From: a bacterium
Lineage (GTDB): Bacteria; SAR324; NAC60-12
DNA length: 64,000 bases
Assembly: GCA_965233585.1 (NCBI GenBank)
Contig: CBDDTI010000747.1
Span: forward strand, 576,001-640,000
Direction of reading: 5' to 3'
The notes below the pieces were generated by a model. That model made no database searches, was not told where the DNA came from, and worked only from the letters and a program-made list of their open reading frames with translations. Positions 9,885 to 30,252 of this stretch are shown here, one piece after another. The position numbers and the translations under genes are program-made. How positions within the stretch are numbered: position 1 is the stretch's first letter; each line of letters opens with the position of its first letter.

Positions 9885-12800
9885 TTACAACTCCCTTTCC
9901 AAAACCGCCTCTTTCCTGCTCCCCGATGTATCCACCACATTTTGAGCTTCGTTTATTTTTTGTTCTAATTGTCCTACTTTTTGAACAAGGGATTTTTGAA
10001 TATTTAGAGGAGGCAAGGAGCTTTGAATATTGTAAATATTATTTCTATTGATTCCTCCTGAACCAGAACCTACTTTCATAGAAGGTAAGTTTAACGATTT
10101 CAATAGATAAAATATAAATTTTAATTCATTATCATCAGAATCCAATAACTTGACGTAAAAGGTAGTATCAATAGGAGTGCAATTTTTTTCTGACCAATTA
10201 ATTTCTCCTGCACTTCCTTTCCTACCAACTATAACACAAGGAGCTTTCACCTCAAAATTATTATGAGTTCCTACAATACCGTTTGAACCGTACACAGGAA
10301 ACTCTCCTTGTACTCTTTCATTCTCTGGTAATGAAATACCATATTCTAAAGTAAATACTTCCCCCAACTTTCTCACCTCATGCCCTCCATTTACTACCGC
10401 TTGAACTTCCTTTTCTATCTCATTTTTATAAGTGCTTATCTTTTCTTGTGCTTTTGCTACTTCCTTATCTATTGCTTCACACTTCACAACTATTTTTTGC
10501 TGAATATCTAAGGGAGGGAGTGGGATTTTTATTTGTTTCATCTTTTCAGCATTTAAGTTCGGTTGTGTTAATGCTATAGTTAAATTGTTGACTTGCTGCC
10601 AATACAAATCCGTATTGTAAAACGAAAAAAGATACGCTGGAAGTATTTTTTCATTTAAGGTTAATCTTACTAGATAAGAGGCGAAAATTAATTTTTCATT
10701 TATATTTTTATAGAAAAACATTCTTCCTGTACTACCACTTCTTGCGATAACAATATCATTCTGTTTTAGTAAAAAATCTTTTTTTATCTCTACGGTAGGA
10801 TTGATATATTTCTTATCCTCGTTTTTTAATGTTCCATCTTCATTAATATCTGTTATTCTTAAATATCTTATTTCTCCTTTGTTTTCTGCTTTTGCAGTAT
10901 ATCCATATTGAGTATTACAGACTTCTCCTAAATTTATAATTGGATACTTACTTTCTACCTCATTATGTATTTTAGGGTTTAAACTAAGGCTGTTACTAAA
11001 TTCCGTCCTTTCAAAATCCAGCATATCGGTTAAACGGGCAATTTTTACATGGTCTTTTAAGGTTTCGTCAACAGCGGTAATGGGCTGTTTTTCAAAGTGG
11101 TTTAAAATATAGCTATTGGCTTTTTCAGGGTTTAGATGATTGTTTTCATCAAACATTTTATTTTGGGCTTGTCCCTTTTCGTTTCGCTTGATTTTAATCC
11201 CTTCGCTTCCCTTTCTATTAGAAAATTCATAACCTAAAAAGTCTTTGGCGGTTTGTTTTTCACCCGATTGCACGATAATCGTTTGTTGATGCTTATAGGC
11301 TTCGCTTACAGTTTTCACTTTTCTAAAATCATCTTTTAAGGTCAGCATAAAATAATAGAATTTTTCCTGTTCTATTTCCAATACCTTATTTAAAAATGCT
11401 GTATTTAATCTTGTTTCTTGATCTTTAAGAGATAAATGTTTAAAACTGGTTTTCTTCTTTAAGTTTTCTGTGGAGGGTAATTTGTTAAACCAGTCTTGAT
11501 AATTTTTGTAAAAAGAAGCGTCTTGAATGTTTTCATTAGGGTTTTTATCAATCAGGGTTTTGTAATCTTCTTTATTCAATCCACGGTAAGATAAAAACAT
11601 ATCTAAAAGTTTATCCCTGTCTAAATAATTCTCTTTTTTCCCCGTGGTGAAAATTTCATCGGCAACCACCCCTCTATCATAGGCAAACCAAAAATGTCTT
11701 TTTTCTAAAAACAACACTACGGTATTGGTTCCCGTTGCTCCAAAAGTGCCGCTACCAAAAGAAGCAATGGCTTTGATATTAAAATGTTCTAAAATTATTT
11801 TTCGGGTCGCTCTATGTAAATCCGAATCATTGCTTAAAATAGAAGAAGGTAAAATAATCGCCGCCCTGCCACCTTCTTTTAAAAGTTGTGCCGTGCGTTC
11901 TATAAAAAGATTTTCTATTTCTTTGGAACTTTCGGTTAAATACTTAAAAAGCGAAAATTGTTTTTCATTAACGGGTAAATAGTTCTTAAAAGATTTAATG
12001 GAATAAGGCGGATTAGACAAAATCACATCAAACAGATTTTTTTCTTCCTTACAATCTAATCTGTCATGATCTTCCAACCCATCACCATAAATGATATTGG
12101 CATCGCCATCACCATTGAGAAAACAAGCAATTTGTGAAGTCCTTGCCAAACGGTAATCTTTCTCTATGCCAAAAATATAGTCCTTTGCCCAAAGCGTATT
12201 GTCTTTGTAAGATTTTGCATTATTCAATATAACTTCTTTGTCTCCCTCAACAACATCTATCTTGTCAATTTGGCTTAAATCCAATCGGTCAATGTTTTTT
12301 TGTAGTTCATCAATGCTTTCAGTTAAAAAATGCCCTGCACCACAGGCATAATCCAAAATTTTAGGTAGGAAACTTTTTGTTCCTGCTTGTAATTTTTTGT
12401 CTGTTATGTGATTCAATCCTAAAGACAAAATCATAAACCGAACAATCGGTACAGGGGTAAAAAACTGCCCTTCGTTTTGTTTGATCCCGTGATTTAGTAT
12501 CAATTCAAAAAAATCGCCCAGTATTTGTTGCTTTTTGGTATAGCGAAAACGGTAATTTTGTAGCATTTTTATCACTTCGTTTAACACCCTTGCGTTTTCT
12601 TTAAACAAGGTTTCGTTATGAACCTCTTTTAGAGCAAATTCATTTTGAGTGTAATACTTGATTTGCTTAAAAATATGTTCTATTTCTCGTATTTTTGATA
12701 CTTTTGAGTAAGAATCTATAATATCTTTAATTTTTTGATCTTCAAAATATACAATTTCTTGCCCTAAATGCTCTTCCATTCCCTTAGCATAAAGTCTTTG

Positions 12801-13724
12801 CAGTCTGTCTTGAATGTTTTCAGGGGTATCTTCTCCCTCCTTGACTTGAAAATCCAAAACGGCATGACCGCCTTTTTCTTCATCTACAATTTTACAAAGC
12901 AGCAAAGACAAAAACCTGTTAAACGCATTGGCGTTGTCCGAAATGTTGTTGTGCCTTAAAATTTCCATAAATTGGTTAAAAATCCCCGAAGCCCCCGTAA
13001 AGGGTTTTAAATCTTTCTTTTTTAGAGGCTTTAATTCAATTTCATAGGCATTAACATCGTATTCAAAAATACCGTTATAATGAAAATAGAGGTTGAAAGT
13101 TTCTTTCCAAACCTCAAAAAGTGCTTTGTTGTTTTTGGCTTTTTCGTATAGCTTAATGCTTTCATCTCCATTCTTAAATGCCTCTATGTCTTCTTTTCTA
13201 TCTTGAGTTTTGATGATGGCGTTTTCATAAGTTATTTTTTCTTCTTTAAAATCAGAAGCGTATAGACACAGGTATTTTGTATCTTTTTCTTGTTGAAAAT
13301 AAGAAAAAAGTTGTCCGCCATTGGATAGCATTTTTTGTTTTTCTTTTTCATATTCGTCGCCCCAAGTTTTGCATTCAATCAGAAGCAACGGTTTTTCTTC
13401 ATGATCTCTTACTAAAATATCGGCTCGTCCGCCACTTGCTCCGTGTCCTACTTTCCATTTTGGTTCAAGCTCTAAATGTTGAGGTAAATATCCTTTCTCC
13501 AAAAGTCTATGCACGCATTCAAACACGACAAAATTCTCTGCAGATGAAAAATTACAAGTTTGCCGTTCGTTAACTTTTAGCCCTTGATTTTCAGGGTAAA
13601 TGATTTGACCTTTGGCAAAATCTACTTGTAAACTAACTTCCTTAAAGGTTTTAGTAAAAACATTGTTCTTTTCCTCAAAAGCTAACTTTTGTAATAGTTT
13701 TTTAAAATTTTCTTTTGTTATCAT
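9885..13724 (-). CDS. Single-chain restriction-modification enzyme: endonuclease + N6-adenine MTase + two HsdS-type TRDs (type IIG/IIB-like R-M-S fusion)
   Basis: N-terminal GRADILV..LLIECK PD-(D/E)xK motif; GQFFTP, DYACGAGHF (motif I), NPPY (motif IV); two C-terminal HsdS repeats ending LPPLDIQQKIV and LPPLNIQKSLV. Confidence 0.9.
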   Translation of the reverse strand: MITKENFKKLLQKLAFEEKNNVFTKTFKEVSLQVDFAKGQIIYPENQGLKVNERQTCNFSSAENFVVFECVHRLLEKGYLPQHLELEPKWKVGHGASGGRADILVRDHEEKPLLLIECKTWGDEYEKEKQKMLSNGGQLFSYFQQEKDTKYLCLYASDFKEEKITYENAIIKTQDRKEDIEAFKNGDESIKLYEKAKNNKALFEVWKETFNLYFHYNGIFEYDVNAYEIELKPLKKKDLKPFTGASGIFNQFMEILRHNNISDNANAFNRFLSLLLCKIVDEEKGGHAVLDFQVKEGEDTPENIQDRLQRLYAKGMEEHLGQEIVYFEDQKIKDIIDSYSKVSKIREIEHIFKQIKYYTQNEFALKEVHNETLFKENARVLNEVIKMLQNYRFRYTKKQQILGDFFELILNHGIKQNEGQFFTPVPIVRFMILSLGLNHITDKKLQAGTKSFLPKILDYACGAGHFLTESIDELQKNIDRLDLSQIDKIDVVEGDKEVILNNAKSYKDNTLWAKDYIFGIEKDYRLARTSQIACFLNGDGDANIIYGDGLEDHDRLDCKEEKNLFDVILSNPPYSIKSFKNYLPVNEKQFSLFKYLTESSKEIENLFIERTAQLLKEGGRAAIILPSSILSNDSDLHRATRKIILEHFNIKAIASFGSGTFGATGTNTVVLFLEKRHFWFAYDRGVVADEIFTTGKKENYLDRDKLLDMFLSYRGLNKEDYKTLIDKNPNENIQDASFYKNYQDWFNKLPSTENLKKKTSFKHLSLKDQETRLNTAFLNKVLEIEQEKFYYFMLTLKDDFRKVKTVSEAYKHQQTIIVQSGEKQTAKDFLGYEFSNRKGSEGIKIKRNEKGQAQNKMFDENNHLNPEKANSYILNHFEKQPITAVDETLKDHVKIARLTDMLDFERTEFSNSLSLNPKIHNEVESKYPIINLGEVCNTQYGYTAKAENKGEIRYLRITDINEDGTLKNEDKKYINPTVEIKKDFLLKQNDIVIARSGSTGRMFFYKNINEKLIFASYLVRLTLNEKILPAYLFSFYNTDLYWQQVNNLTIALTQPNLNAEKMKQIKIPLPPLDIQQKIVVKCEAIDKEVAKAQEKISTYKNEIEKEVQAVVNGGHEVRKLGEVFTLEYGISLPENERVQGEFPVYGSNGIVGTHNNFEVKAPCVIVGRKGSAGEINWSEKNCTPIDTTFYVKLLDSDDNELKFIFYLLKSLNLPSMKVGSGSGGINRNNIYNIQSSLPPLNIQKSLVQKVGQLEQKINEAQNVVDTSGSRKEAVLEREL

Positions 13725-26015: not shown

Positions 26016-26849
26016 TTAGGCATTCACAGTGATTTGTTCTTGTGTGCCAAGTTTGTCAATAGTGAGTGTCATTTTTTGATTTGGCTTCAAGTAAAGAGGG
26101 TCAGGCTTTTGTCCCATTCCCACACCCGGAGGCGTGCCAGTAGAAATCAAATCACCCGGCAAAAGTGTCATAAATTGTGATAAATAAGCCACCAAAAAAG
26201 GAATTTTGTAGTGCATGTTATTCGTTGTGCTGTCTTGATAAACCTTGCCGTCAACGCTCAGTGTCAAATGCAAATCATCTTCATTGCCCACTTCATCTTT
26301 GGTGACCAAATAAGGACCGATTGGCGAAAAAGTGTCATGGCTTTTGCCCTTTGTCCATTGTCCACTTCGTTCAATTTGGAACTCTCGTTCTGAAAGATCA
26401 TTGACGATAGTATAGCCCGCAATATGCTCATACGCCTCTGCTTCTGTGATATATTTTGCTTTTTTGCCAATGATGACACCAAGCTCCACTTCCCAGTCTG
26501 TTTTTTTAGAGTTTTTGGGAATTTCTACATGGTCGTATGCTCCAACAATAGAGCTTGTTGCTTTCATAAAAATCATAGGTTCAGGTGGAATTTCAAGTCC
26601 ACTTTCCTTAGCATGGTCTGAATAGTTGAGTCCGATACAAATGATTTTACCAATCTGGTCAACAGGAGGTGCAATGCGGTCATATTGTTCCACCTTTGGC
26701 AACTTTTCTACATGGATTTGAGAAGACAAAAGTTTTCCTAACGTCTGCGGGTTGATGTCTTCTACAACAGAAGAAAGGTCATAAAAATCATCTTCCACTT
26801 TGATTGCAGGTTTTGTTTGATTCTGTGTTGTGTATCGTAAAAATTTCAT
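26016..26849 (-). CDS. Fumarylacetoacetate-hydrolase family protein (probable diketo-deoxy sugar acid hydrolase)
   Basis: CIGLNY, DWEVEL, NDLSER, KGKSHD, TGTPPGVG; lies downstream of mutarotase and SDR remnants. Confidence 0.88.
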   Translation of the reverse strand: MKFLRYTTQNQTKPAIKVEDDFYDLSSVVEDINPQTLGKLLSSQIHVEKLPKVEQYDRIAPPVDQIGKIICIGLNYSDHAKESGLEIPPEPMIFMKATSSIVGAYDHVEIPKNSKKTDWEVELGVIIGKKAKYITEAEAYEHIAGYTIVNDLSEREFQIERSGQWTKGKSHDTFSPIGPYLVTKDEVGNEDDLHLTLSVDGKVYQDSTTNNMHYKIPFLVAYLSQFMTLLPGDLISTGTPPGVGMGQKPDPLYLKPNQKMTLTIDKLGTQEQITVNA

Positions 26850-27046
26850 ATCGTTTTCTTGATTGAATGTTGAGTTTAAGTTGGATAGTTAAAATGATTT
26901 TAAAAAATAGACAAAATGAATAACAAAACATAAGGAATCATCATAAAAATTGGTATAAATTTCTCTATTTTTGTCAGTTGAAAATAGGTTTTCGTCTGTT
27001 GACCTTCTTTGAGTAACTCCCATTCTTTTTTATAAAACGGATATCT

Positions 27047-27806
27047 GGCATTGTTAAGTAATAAGTGATAGCTGATTATTCCGTTTTGCCATGAACAAAA
27101 GAACAGAATATTGTAATGCTTTAAGAGACTTGCTGTAACATTTGGTTTTCCTTCTCATTCTTGCCAAGAAATGTCTCAAGAGAGAATTATACCCTTCTAT
27201 CGTGTATGTTTCTGCCTTGGAACATGTATGAATTTCTTTGGGAATGACTTGTTTGTAAGCCTTGCAGTGATCAGTCATCACCTGAAGAGGTTTTGTTTCC
27301 TTGACCTTGTCCCATAAATGCCTACAGGCTTTTGAGTCTCTGTTTCCAAGCACACAATTGATAAATTGCTTCCCACATCTATCAACAGCAATCCAGAGCC
27401 AGCAGTAGTTTTTTTTGACTGGATGTAGGTGTGCATTTCATCAATTTCCATAATTTCAATGTCTGTGTCCTTTCTTAATGCCTTGAGCTGTTCGCCAAAA
27501 CTACAGACCCAATTATAAACTGAAACATGAGAACAATTCAGCAAACGACCGATTGACCTGAAACCAAGACCCTCCAAATACAACTCTAATGCTCTTCTTT
27601 TGATCTGTGGTGAGATTTGACCACGATAGGACTTGGTATATTGATAGTTGCAGGCATTGCAACGCCTCCTCGGTTTACCATATAAGAAACCATTCTTAAC
27701 CGTCTTCTCACTTTCACATCTAGGACACGACTTCATTGCTACACCATGACTATCAATTCAATTAAATGAACTTAATATCGCATATCACTTATAGTTTAAC
27801 AATACC
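27047..27806 (-). mobile_element. IS1-family insertion sequence, 760 bp
   Basis: 24-bp terminal IRs (GGCATTGTTAAGTAATAAGTGATA vs GGTATTGTTAAACTATAAGTGATA, 20/24 identical); 8-bp TSD GGATATCT at 27039-27046 and 27807-27814; InsA/InsB ORFs inside. Confidence 0.95.
27054..27736 (-). CDS. insAB: IS1-family transposase (InsA+InsB) expressed by -1 programmed frameshift
   Basis: Zinc finger CPRC..CNAC, HTH GLGFRSIGRLL, EIDEMH, TDHC, IEGYN DDE motifs; slippery A8C run at 27416-27408 shifts into KNYCWLWIAVDR. Confidence 0.92.
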
Positions 27807-28119
27807 GGATATCTTAATTGCTGCTCCAAACCATGAATTGCTTTAAACTTTCCAGAATTTAATTGCTTGTATGAATGAATATTAATCAGCCATATAAGGC
27901 AAAGGATCATGCCCAGAATAGAAAAAACAAGGAGTATGATTTTTCCATGCCATACAAGCAGATCTTTATTAAAAAGCAAGGTTACAAAAGCAAATAAACC
28001 TGACAATAAGGCAATGTAAAAACGATTTGTTTGTAACCGCCTTTGGCTCACTCTATCTGCCATTTCTACATGCAGTTTATAAATTTCTAATAATTCTTGT
28101 TGAGTTTCCATTTCACTAA

Positions 28120-28533
28120 CTATTTGGTTAATTTTTGAATTGCATCAACAATACTTTTTGTATTCCAACGAACGATTTCATCAGCATTGTCTTTGACATG
28201 TTGTGAAGTTCTTTCACTAGCCCATGGTTCTATTGCGACAATAGGTTTTTGCCATGTCTCACTTTTTTTAGCAACTTCTACTTCAATATTGATCCATTTA
28301 CTATAAGTGGAATAAACTCCTGCTAAAACTAAGACGACATGACAATTTCTTATTTTTTCTGTAATGGCTTCTCGTAATTCTTTGTTAGTACCATCGGTAT
28401 GAATAGGATTATCTTTCGGCACAGAAAAATTGTTATACTCAAAGCCATCTGCTTGATCCAACAAATTTACTAGATGATCATATTGTTGCTTATATGTCCA
28501 TGAATGACTAATAAATAAATTGTAAATTTTCAT
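28120..28533 (-). CDS. TIR-like domain protein (MTH538/DUF1863, ThsB-like)
   Basis: YNLFISHSW, SVP, VLAGVYSTYSKWINIEV with catalytic-position Glu, KPIVAI, IVRWNTKSIVDAI; AAGGA RBS. Confidence 0.88.
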   Translation of the reverse strand: MKIYNLFISHSWTYKQQYDHLVNLLDQADGFEYNNFSVPKDNPIHTDGTNKELREAITEKIRNCHVVLVLAGVYSTYSKWINIEVEVAKKSETWQKPIVAIEPWASERTSQHVKDNADEIVRWNTKSIVDAIQKLTK

Positions 28534-28555
28534 ATTTATTCCTTATTTTAAGTTA

Positions 28556-29177
<622 letters not shown>

Positions 29178-29187
29178 AGTTTGTCCC

Positions 29188-30252
29188 TTATTTTAGTTGG
29201 GCACTCATTTTCTTTTCCCAATCCTTCACATTTTTCCAACTTCTTTTGAACCATTCAGATGTTAAGTAGTAGTCTTCACCTAAAAAACGATAAATCTTTT
29301 TATAATAACGAGGCAATTTTATCTCTCCGCCTTCTATCTTTCTTCTCAATACAGGATAATTGATATTAAAAACTTTTTTTGAATAATCTTTATCCAACAA
29401 ATTTTGAATTTCTTGTGATGTTAAATTTTTTTGAGTTTCTAGTTTTTCAAATAATTTTTGAACATATTTACCAATTTTCATTCCATCTTCAGTTGGCTGT
29501 TGTGGCACGAGTTTACAGTCAATAGCCTGATTTTGATTAGGTTTAGGAGATGTTGATGCTTCCCAACTTTTGATAGTACTTTGACATGTTTCTTGTTCGT
29601 CTTGACAGATCAATTTGACTTCTAATTCTCCAAACACCTCATCAATCACTTCAGGAGCATATTGATCTTGTAAAGAATTTTTAATCAATCTTGTTACAGA
29701 ATCTAAAAAACTTGTATCTTGAATGTGTTCTCTCAAATCTTGTTTTGCTTTTTGTCCTTGTACAAATTTTTCTAACTTATCAAAGCTAAAGCGAGATTTG
29801 TCAAATAACTCCACAAAACAATCTCCCTTTTTTGACTTTGTATTTAATGGGATTATCTCAATTAAAGTAGGCTCTTGGGATTGTTTTAATTTCCCATCAT
29901 AAAAAATCTGTATCTCACTTCCTATCAATAGTCCATAATCAAGTTTGAGCTGTCTCATGTATGAAAAAAGTTGTCCGTGATGTTGAGAGTTAATGTGAAT
30001 GCTTGGTCTTTTCACTTCAACAACAAACACAGGTTTTGAATCATCTGTTTTAAATAATAAATCAGGTTCAATTCTATTTTGAGAACCCACTCTAAGTGTG
30101 CGTCTCCTTTCAATATTTTTTAAATATTCTTTCCAACCTAATTCTCCGAATGCTTGAACAATTTTATCTTCAAATTGTTTTTCGTCAGTATTTTGATTGA
30201 TCCCTTGTAAAAGGTAAAAGTGAAATGCCGACCATTTGTTGTTGTTTTCCAT
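29188..30252 (-). CDS. Stand-alone HsdR_N-like PD-(D/E)xK endonuclease protein with a C-terminal domain of unknown function
   Basis: IEPDLLF..FVVEVKRP..QLFSYM; C-terminal KIGKYVQ..YSKKVFNINYPVL..RYY..YYLTSEWF domain. Confidence 0.75.
   Translation of the reverse strand: MENNNKWSAFHFYLLQGINQNTDEKQFEDKIVQAFGELGWKEYLKNIERRRTLRVGSQNRIEPDLLFKTDDSKPVFVVEVKRPSIHINSQHHGQLFSYMRQLKLDYGLLIGSEIQIFYDGKLKQSQEPTLIEIIPLNTKSKKGDCFVELFDKSRFSFDKLEKFVQGQKAKQDLREHIQDTSFLDSVTRLIKNSLQDQYAPEVIDEVFGELEVKLICQDEQETCQSTIKSWEASTSPKPNQNQAIDCKLVPQQPTEDGMKIGKYVQKLFEKLETQKNLTSQEIQNLLDKDYSKKVFNINYPVLRRKIEGGEIKLPRYYKKIYRFLGEDYYLTSEWFKRSWKNVKDWEKKMSAQLK

Follow-up and report, generated by a model that had tools for sequence, protein, structure and literature searches.

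An 8xMP membrane protein gene interrupted by IS1 and its TIR partner in a SAR324 genome: a probable Thoeris variant

The locus examined here raises the question of whether a short TIR gene and the interrupted membrane protein gene behind it constitute an anti-phage system and, if so, how that system relates to the Thoeris types already described. In the window, that is, the whole stretch of 64,000 nucleotides analysed, the TIR gene occupies 28120..28533 on the minus strand and encodes an intact protein of 137 aa that keeps Glu84, and the ORF of its partner starts at 28111, 8 nt past the TIR stop codon on the same strand, in agreement with the initial annotation. The 5′ part of the partner gene (27815..28111, minus strand, codons 1–99) corresponds to positions 1–91 of the Pfam family 8xMP (PF24838), an identification also backed by residue conservation and hydropathy, and the 3′ part (26900..27046, minus strand, 48 codons and a stop) corresponds to positions 94–135. 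Between the two parts lies an insertion element at 27047..27806 (minus strand). IS1 elements are about 760 bp long, have terminal inverted repeats, duplicate 8–9 bp of their target and encode a transposase in two frames. The present element is 760 bp long, is bounded by inverted repeats (27040–27070 and 27783–27813), is flanked by an exact 8-bp target-site duplication (copy 1, 27807..27814; copy 2, 27039..27046) and contains transposase pieces in two frames (27278–27736 and 27054–27353) matching NF033558 and PF03400, and its assignment to the IS1 family rests on these features and on its copies in the assembly. Removing the element and one repeat copy in silico gave an open frame of 147 codons with its stop at 26900–26902, so that the intact gene predicted to lie beneath the insertion was recovered; excision one base shorter or longer left only 104 or 122 codons.

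The insertion is regarded as real and recent because the assembly contains 33 IS1 matches longer than 700 nt at 98.9–100% identity, many of them flanked by their own 8-bp duplications, because the read depth of IS1 is approximately 30 times that of its flanks, because both junctions are backed by contigs from two of the four sequencing runs examined, and because no IS-free joined form of the 8xMP gene was found in these four runs. All 33 matches lie on five contigs (G000 C747, C746, C745, C295 and C729), which carry what appears to be a burst of IS1.

Both halves of the interrupted gene belong to PF24838, a profile of 136 positions, scoring 90.6 bits (5′) and 38.5 bits (3′) against a cut-off of 30, and they were 63–69% and 57–71% identical, respectively, to intact homologues (six of six tested). 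An Atlas cluster of this family is named 'RipA family octameric membrane protein', so the RipA-family name given in the initial annotation was right, and the profile matches at least 4032 clusters at 50% identity. The three transmembrane helices and the soluble helix noticed earlier were likewise recovered: hydrophobic segments lie at residues 35–53, 58–76 and 129–147, as in the intact homologue P0003, and the 5′ part comprises, in order, a soluble helix with conserved Y11, D19, R24, R25 and N29, TM1, TM2 and then W74, N85, K88 and E96, followed in the 3′ part by E107, W108, Y120, E127, P131 and TM3. Every residue conserved in at least 80% of 146 relatives is kept in the two halves, and D19, R24, R25, N85, K88, E96 and E107 are invariant, all of them located in soluble regions on the same side of the membrane. 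The protein P0144 (859 aa) combines 8xMP at its N-terminus with an ABC/AAA ATPase at its C-terminus.

Modelled as a monomer (pLDDT 88.2), P0003 forms a bundle of three helices with one short helix. The model gave no Foldseek match at E ≤ 0.001 and only generic helical bundles in VIA-align (best Z 10.6, rmsd 4.7); no solved relative of 8xMP was found by sequence, and neither the TIR nor the 8xMP proteins tested have a model in NCBIfam. Four copies of P0003 modelled together scored 0.44 versus 0.00 for the best of three controls, and the mark concerned, whose calibration applies only roughly here, had been attained by 20 of the 30 homodimers of solved structure and by one of the 23 single chains; the runs agreed in at least 83% of contacts, with a partner pLDDT of at least 68. 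In the four-copy model, helix 1 of one subunit packs on helices 1 and 2 of the next, with an open arc or ring geometry, and the helix carrying E107 and W108 touches the next subunit. The modelling, of four copies of a homologue, thus supports self-association of 8xMP. Basic pockets between subunits have been modelled for ThsF, ThsG and ThsH in the available text of Yirmiya et al. (2025; bioRxiv 10.64898/2025.12.03.692087), and by analogy 8xMP may possess a basic ligand pocket at the same place.

The 8xMP product of the window, shortened by IS1, would lose TM3 and the E107/W108 helix. Since it lacks these parts, the copy here is predicted to be inactive, and the system in this genome appears to be dead, presumably killed by the recent insertion of IS1. 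Downstream of the pair lies a gene of the FAA-hydrolase family (26016..26849, minus strand; PF01557, with NF053535 below its cut-off). Upstream of the pair, a frameshifted fragment of a short-chain dehydrogenase, recognised by three-frame translation and by relatives' genes matched in two frames, forms a block at 28561..29177 (minus strand) with a shortened L-rhamnose mutarotase gene (28932–29177, minus strand; PF05336 positions 1–72 of 105). In three loci (L083, L085 and L087) of two related genomes, the FAA-hydrolase gene comes next after the dehydrogenase gene, within approximately 40 nt. Because the relatives' dehydrogenase directly precedes the FAA-hydrolase gene and the TIR–8xMP pair here lies between the two, the pair evidently arrived as a cassette, whose recipient, to judge from the gene remnants, appears to be a decaying rhamnose-type operon. 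As had been noticed, the TIR gene (GC 0.316) and the two 8xMP halves (0.327 and 0.259) are richer in AT than the FAA-hydrolase gene (0.40) and the dehydrogenase fragment (0.45); the GC content of the window is 0.399. The two ends of the cassette, at the FAA-hydrolase start (26840–26867) and the TIR gene start (28524–28551), are 71% alike over 28 nt, which possibly reflects a decayed target duplication or microhomology and possibly chance.

Promoter-like sites around the locus occurred at chance level (9 versus 8.7). Near the cassette lies an AT-rich ORF for an HsdR-N-type nuclease (29188–30252, GC 0.309), and farther away a type IIG restriction-modification gene (12735–13724) lies inside an AT-rich stretch at approximately 9–14 kb. 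A second PF08937 match in the assembly falls within an 860-aa frame (G000:C747:109493–109759). The IS1 burst and the broken rhamnose-type genes (28561–29177) are signs of ongoing genome erosion, and the copy in the window is of interest solely as a fossil that records the loss of a defence cassette in the course of such a burst.

The TIR protein carries the FISHSW and SKWINIE motifs and matches PF08937 with 55.8 bits (cut-off 21.2) and the PADLOC ThsB model with E 1.7e-11. Glu84, which is conserved in at least 90% of 29 TIR relatives, aligns with EcTIR, and the protein is thus a stand-alone TIR of ThsB type with the catalytic Glu, as in Thoeris. The kinship to ThsB that had been proposed stands at the level of these matches, but the nearest characterised TIR is EcTIR of type IV Thoeris rather than a ThsB of type I or II. 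The TIR of the window is identical to the EcTIR sequence found in locus L221 at 66 of 136 positions (49%, E 2e-47), the TIR and caspase of that locus reading letter for letter, by eye, as EcTIR and EcCaspase of Supplementary Data 1 of PMC13243611. In the accessible text of that paper, EcTIR is used to make N7-cADPR and is a proven type IV producer. Furthermore, the TIR upstream of 8xMP in L009 is approximately 45% identical, by a count made by eye, to PsTIR, the other proven N7-cADPR producer according to the sources available. By sequence, the TIR of the window is assigned to the N7-cADPR-producing clade. Activation of EcTIR is reported, in the text available, to need the capsid vertex protein of T6; that a capsid protein might also trigger the TIR here is a guess by analogy. 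Scans of viral sequences with either of two single queries, the TIR of the window and that of L009, gave no match.

The argument for an anti-phage role comes mainly from other genomes. Relatives of 8xMP were encoded in 430 genome stretches, of which the best 80 were kept; in 33 of these 80 loci, a gene closely related to the TIR of the window lies directly upstream of 8xMP, L022 and L025 being the same in sequence and three of the TIRs being partial. For the other 47 loci, 91 of 207 neighbouring ORFs, from 36 loci, were scanned, 11 look-alike Poribacteria loci being left out; another PF08937 gene was found in three of the 47 and an adjacent TIR_2 gene in five (eight more TIR loci), and a caspase gene was adjacent in seven, one of them also with TIR_2. 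Over the 80 loci, a TIR is thus present in 41 and a caspase alone in 6, and the neighbours examined include neither gene in the remaining 33; of the 39 loci without an adjacent TIR gene, 11 resemble one Poribacteria lineage. PF08937 also adjoins 8xMP in 9 of 12 viral loci. It is likewise adjacent in six of eight plasmid loci read from 36 records, with four phyla of bacteria and one haloarchaeon represented. Within the order to which the window belongs, 8xMP scored above the cut-off in 3 of 64 genomes, the source genome counted, and TIR was linked to it in all three strong loci. The check on conservation that the initial annotation had called for thus came out in favour of the pair.

The proposed enrichment of defence genes was also found: at E ≤ 1e-25, PADLOC matched 21 of 82 flanking proteins, in 12 of 30 TIR–8xMP loci (BrxC/PglX, type I HsdM/HsdS and methylases), compared with 3 of 39 proteins of the window, this control being one genome window, and one of the flanking matches is a RecQ-like helicase that may be housekeeping. 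The labels HsdM, RecQ-like and LuxR-type rest on PADLOC or Pfam matches. In L032 and L040 the pair is flanked by BrxC on one side and PglX on the other, and in L064 by HsdM and HsdS. Conserved operons in which the TIR gene is joined by a distinct effector gene, close to genes of defence systems, are thus seen here as in Thoeris. The pair has been lost here without obvious cost, as might be expected of a pair without an anti-phage role that hitch-hikes in mobile DNA, but its insertion inside BREX and restriction operons, the exchange of 8xMP with type IV caspases and SLATT effectors and the strong residue conservation in 8xMP make such a reading scarcely credible.

Several loci depart from the simple pair. 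In L026 (4503–6459), the order is TIR, SLATT, TIR, 8xMP and methylase, with two TIR/effector pairs stacked in one operon. Upstream of 8xMP in L078 (4844–5995), an ORF of 383 aa fuses a ThsB TIR to a Phage_Mu_F head-morphogenesis domain, a fusion that may serve to sense phage directly or may be an artefact of a frameshift. In a Poribacteria lineage (L018–L020, L024, L028, L030, L035, L037, L048, L059 and L079), a lone 8xMP gene stands behind a heavy-metal P-type ATPase gene with no TIR, and L043 has a TIR remnant at the corresponding place. In Bacteroidota (L002, L010, L013 and L016), a TPR protein, a LuxR-type response regulator, a type IV-like caspase and 8xMP are encoded in one run; L002, L013 and L016 are without an adjacent TIR.

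Such loci bear on whether 8xMP could be a general pore-forming executioner opened by a cue other than a TIR signal, such as caspase cleavage or direct sensing of a phage protein, with the TIR as one of several passengers. The six loci with a caspase and no adjacent TIR, three of them behind the TPR protein and response regulator, and the 33 with neither gene fit this scheme. However, caspases are rare at TIR–8xMP loci (2 of 37 metagenomic 8xMP loci), those adjacent to 8xMP resemble EcCaspase, a promiscuous ligand-activated protease, a PF08937 match was present elsewhere in four of five caspase–8xMP genomes searched, and TIR remnants precede some lone 8xMP genes (L043 and L057). We thus consider it very unlikely that 8xMP is opened independently of the TIR.

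The position of 8xMP as an effector was then viewed from the side of the TIRs, with an alignment of 29 8xMP-linked TIRs as the query; the best 80 of at least 552 metagenomic loci and 80 viral loci were retrieved, 75 of the viral loci were analysed, and loci were labelled by the genes within 3 kb. The 80 closest metagenomic loci contained a caspase in 36, 8xMP in 35, SLATT in 5, both caspase and 8xMP in 2 and none of these in 2, whereas the 75 viral loci, many of them near-copies, contained SLATT in 52, a caspase in 15, 8xMP in 6 and none in 2. The share of 8xMP is inflated, as the query was built from 8xMP-linked TIRs, but this bias cannot explain the caspases. The SLATT pairs of the viral set (L225–L277) lie by integrase-like genes, and proviruses thus appear, from gene content, to carry a type VII-like Thoeris.

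The TIR tree comprised 113 of 155 unique TIRs, leaving out a separate viral SLATT clade, double or empty labels and one frameshifted row. Partner labels change 19 times on this tree versus 38 when shuffled, and a single clade of 8xMP-linked TIRs was rejected (p-AU 0.0097); caspase-linked and 8xMP-linked TIRs are interleaved, on a tree of few columns whose support is weak overall and in which the window's TIR falls in no well-supported set. Four SLATT-linked TIRs lie within the same clade and share its residues, and no residue was found to tell apart the TIRs linked to caspase, to 8xMP or, within the clade, to SLATT. Over the full length of EcCaspase, the seven caspases encoded next to 8xMP share 37–44% identity with it, and in L166 and L100 caspase, TIR and 8xMP genes form one operon. 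With EcCaspase as the one query sequence, no match was found in the assembly of the window.

Considering these results, we propose that the TIR–8xMP pair is probably a Thoeris variant in which a signal made by the TIR opens an oligomeric three-helix membrane pore, leading to abortive infection. The short TIR would sense a phage product and convert NAD+ to a cyclic ADP-ribose signal through Glu84. In the 8xMP oligomer, conserved residues of basic or polar character on the soluble helices would bind the signal. The three-helix subunits, ringed side by side, would then open the inner membrane and thereby bring the infection to a halt. This scheme is built on the structure of the two genes, their families, the conservation of their linkage, the defence genes nearby, the relationship of the TIR to EcTIR and the self-association seen in modelling. 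TIRs act as effectors in CBASS, Pycsar and SPARTA. The roles in our scheme could be reversed, with 8xMP serving as sensor or scaffold in the membrane and the TIR depleting NAD+ as the effector, and Yirmiya et al. (2025) warn in the text available that unverified types may work in reverse polarity. We regard this arrangement as highly improbable, as the TIR is a bare 137-aa domain whose clade includes a member with proven signalling activity, three unrelated partners alternate beside the same TIRs, and only mild NAD+ loss is reported with a type IV system in the accessible part of Rousset et al. (bioRxiv 10.1101/2024.10.24.620036).

If the TIR of the pair does signal to an 8xMP pore, the likeliest signal is N7-cADPR, to which we would give roughly even chances. 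Membership of the EcTIR clade does not fix the signal, since SLATT-linked TIRs lie inside the clade and type VII uses canonical cADPR, and since one TIR cluster of Yirmiya et al. (2025) mixes types I, IV and V. Likewise, a shared operon need not mean a shared signal, by analogy with Pycsar and type IV Thoeris, which co-occur in one operon without cross-activation in the available text of PMC13069673. We suggest tentatively, and with somewhat less than even confidence, that 8xMP is a second, structurally unrelated receptor of N7-cADPR, namely a ligand-gated pore that swaps freely with the type IV caspase, is about as common in the TIR clade and lies outside the verified Thoeris types. According to the literature available, N7-cADPR has one known receptor, the type IV caspase; to judge from the relatives of the TIR, an alarm molecule so far known only to switch on a protease may also act on 8xMP. 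Were 8xMP to read it, the signal would have a second receptor of a different fold, which would also be smaller than any other signal-gated pore among the Thoeris systems. A function would then be gained for a large family of more than 4000 clusters that is so far uncharacterised.

The position of the pair among known systems can be judged from the effector. The earlier proposal of a minimal TIR-to-membrane module holds in that the two-gene pair is conserved, but the module is not new in kind, since minimal TIR plus membrane effector systems are already verified as types V (three TM helices, DUF2270), VII (SLATT) and X (ion channel) in the available text of Yirmiya et al. (2025), which describes a scan of approximately 600 million proteins and 29 putative Thoeris types. 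We think it rather likely that the TIR–8xMP pair is among these 29. In the open literature, with subscription papers, figures and preprint supplements outside the scope, we found no paper on the 8xMP family or describing the TIR–8xMP pair; the Thoeris literature consulted in part includes PMC13434031 and PMC13712596. The pair thus represents a widespread Thoeris configuration that has probably been predicted already and is apparently without prior experimental study.

The pair might also be the verified type IX (ThsJ) of Yirmiya et al. (2025), with a TIR making 3′cADPR. The text of the preprint, as available, does not state the nature of ThsJ, a scan of that size should have met a pair this common, and 8xMP also pairs with other ThsB subclades. 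However, in the same text the type IV caspase was not activated by the lysate of any new type, while the TIR of the window belongs to the EcTIR clade, and type IX came from Bacillus cereus, whereas no Bacillus is listed among the 36 plasmid records that carry 8xMP, a weak point; identity with type IX thus seems unlikely. An E. coli TIR system of Wang 2024 (PMC11350192) was also considered as a match for the pair; it is less likely, since two TIR–8xMP loci gave no match to E. coli by blastn. Rip1 (ring interacting pore 1), as summarised in a review, is a single prophage gene whose product rings phage terminase or portal.

From the sequences, the TIR–8xMP pair appears to differ in its effector from types I, II, IV, V and VII. 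The partner contains no SIR2, SLOG or Macro domain in a Pfam scan, as the initial annotation had stated, and hence is neither the SIR2-SLOG nor the Macro-TM ThsA of types I and II. Type IV consists of a TIR and the caspase-like ThsE with N7-cADPR as the signal (Rousset et al., in the part available); it shares with the present pair the two-gene layout and the TIR clade, and close TIR relatives occur beside ThsE-like caspases as often as beside 8xMP, but the partner here is a 147-aa three-helix membrane protein instead of a protease. Type VII (ThsB and the SLATT protein ThsH, with canonical cADPR; Yirmiya et al., 2025) resembles the pair in combining a TIR with a small membrane effector, and SLATT genes fill the same slot by related TIRs. 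However, 8xMP has three TM helices versus two in SLATT, neither half of the gene gave a SLATT score near the cut-off, and the SLATT signals of 8xMP were weak (PADLOC E 0.0013; SLATT_1 in 4 of 105 members; probability of 10.5% over 18 columns for the 8xMP profile against 20 SLATT proteins). Type V comprises ThsB and ThsF/DUF2270 (PF10028) with 3′cADPR (same source). Its effector differs from that of the pair, which belongs to PF24838: neither 8xMP half matched PF10028 at E ≤ 0.1, PF10028 was absent from the 25 commonest families among 105 8xMP members, and a DUF2270 protein compared with 8xMP gave an hhalign probability of 0.3%. The comparison rests on one DUF2270 sequence and Pfam scans because PF10028 is scarce in the genomes scanned (0 of 88 in the phylum of the window and 2 of 40 others), and remote common ancestry of 8xMP with DUF2270, or remote kinship with SLATT, is possible. 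Since it likewise combines a short TIR with an effector of three TM helices, and since ThsF is predicted to form a homo-oligomeric ring without a separate ligand-binding domain, type V Thoeris would be the best functional analogue of the TIR–8xMP pair.
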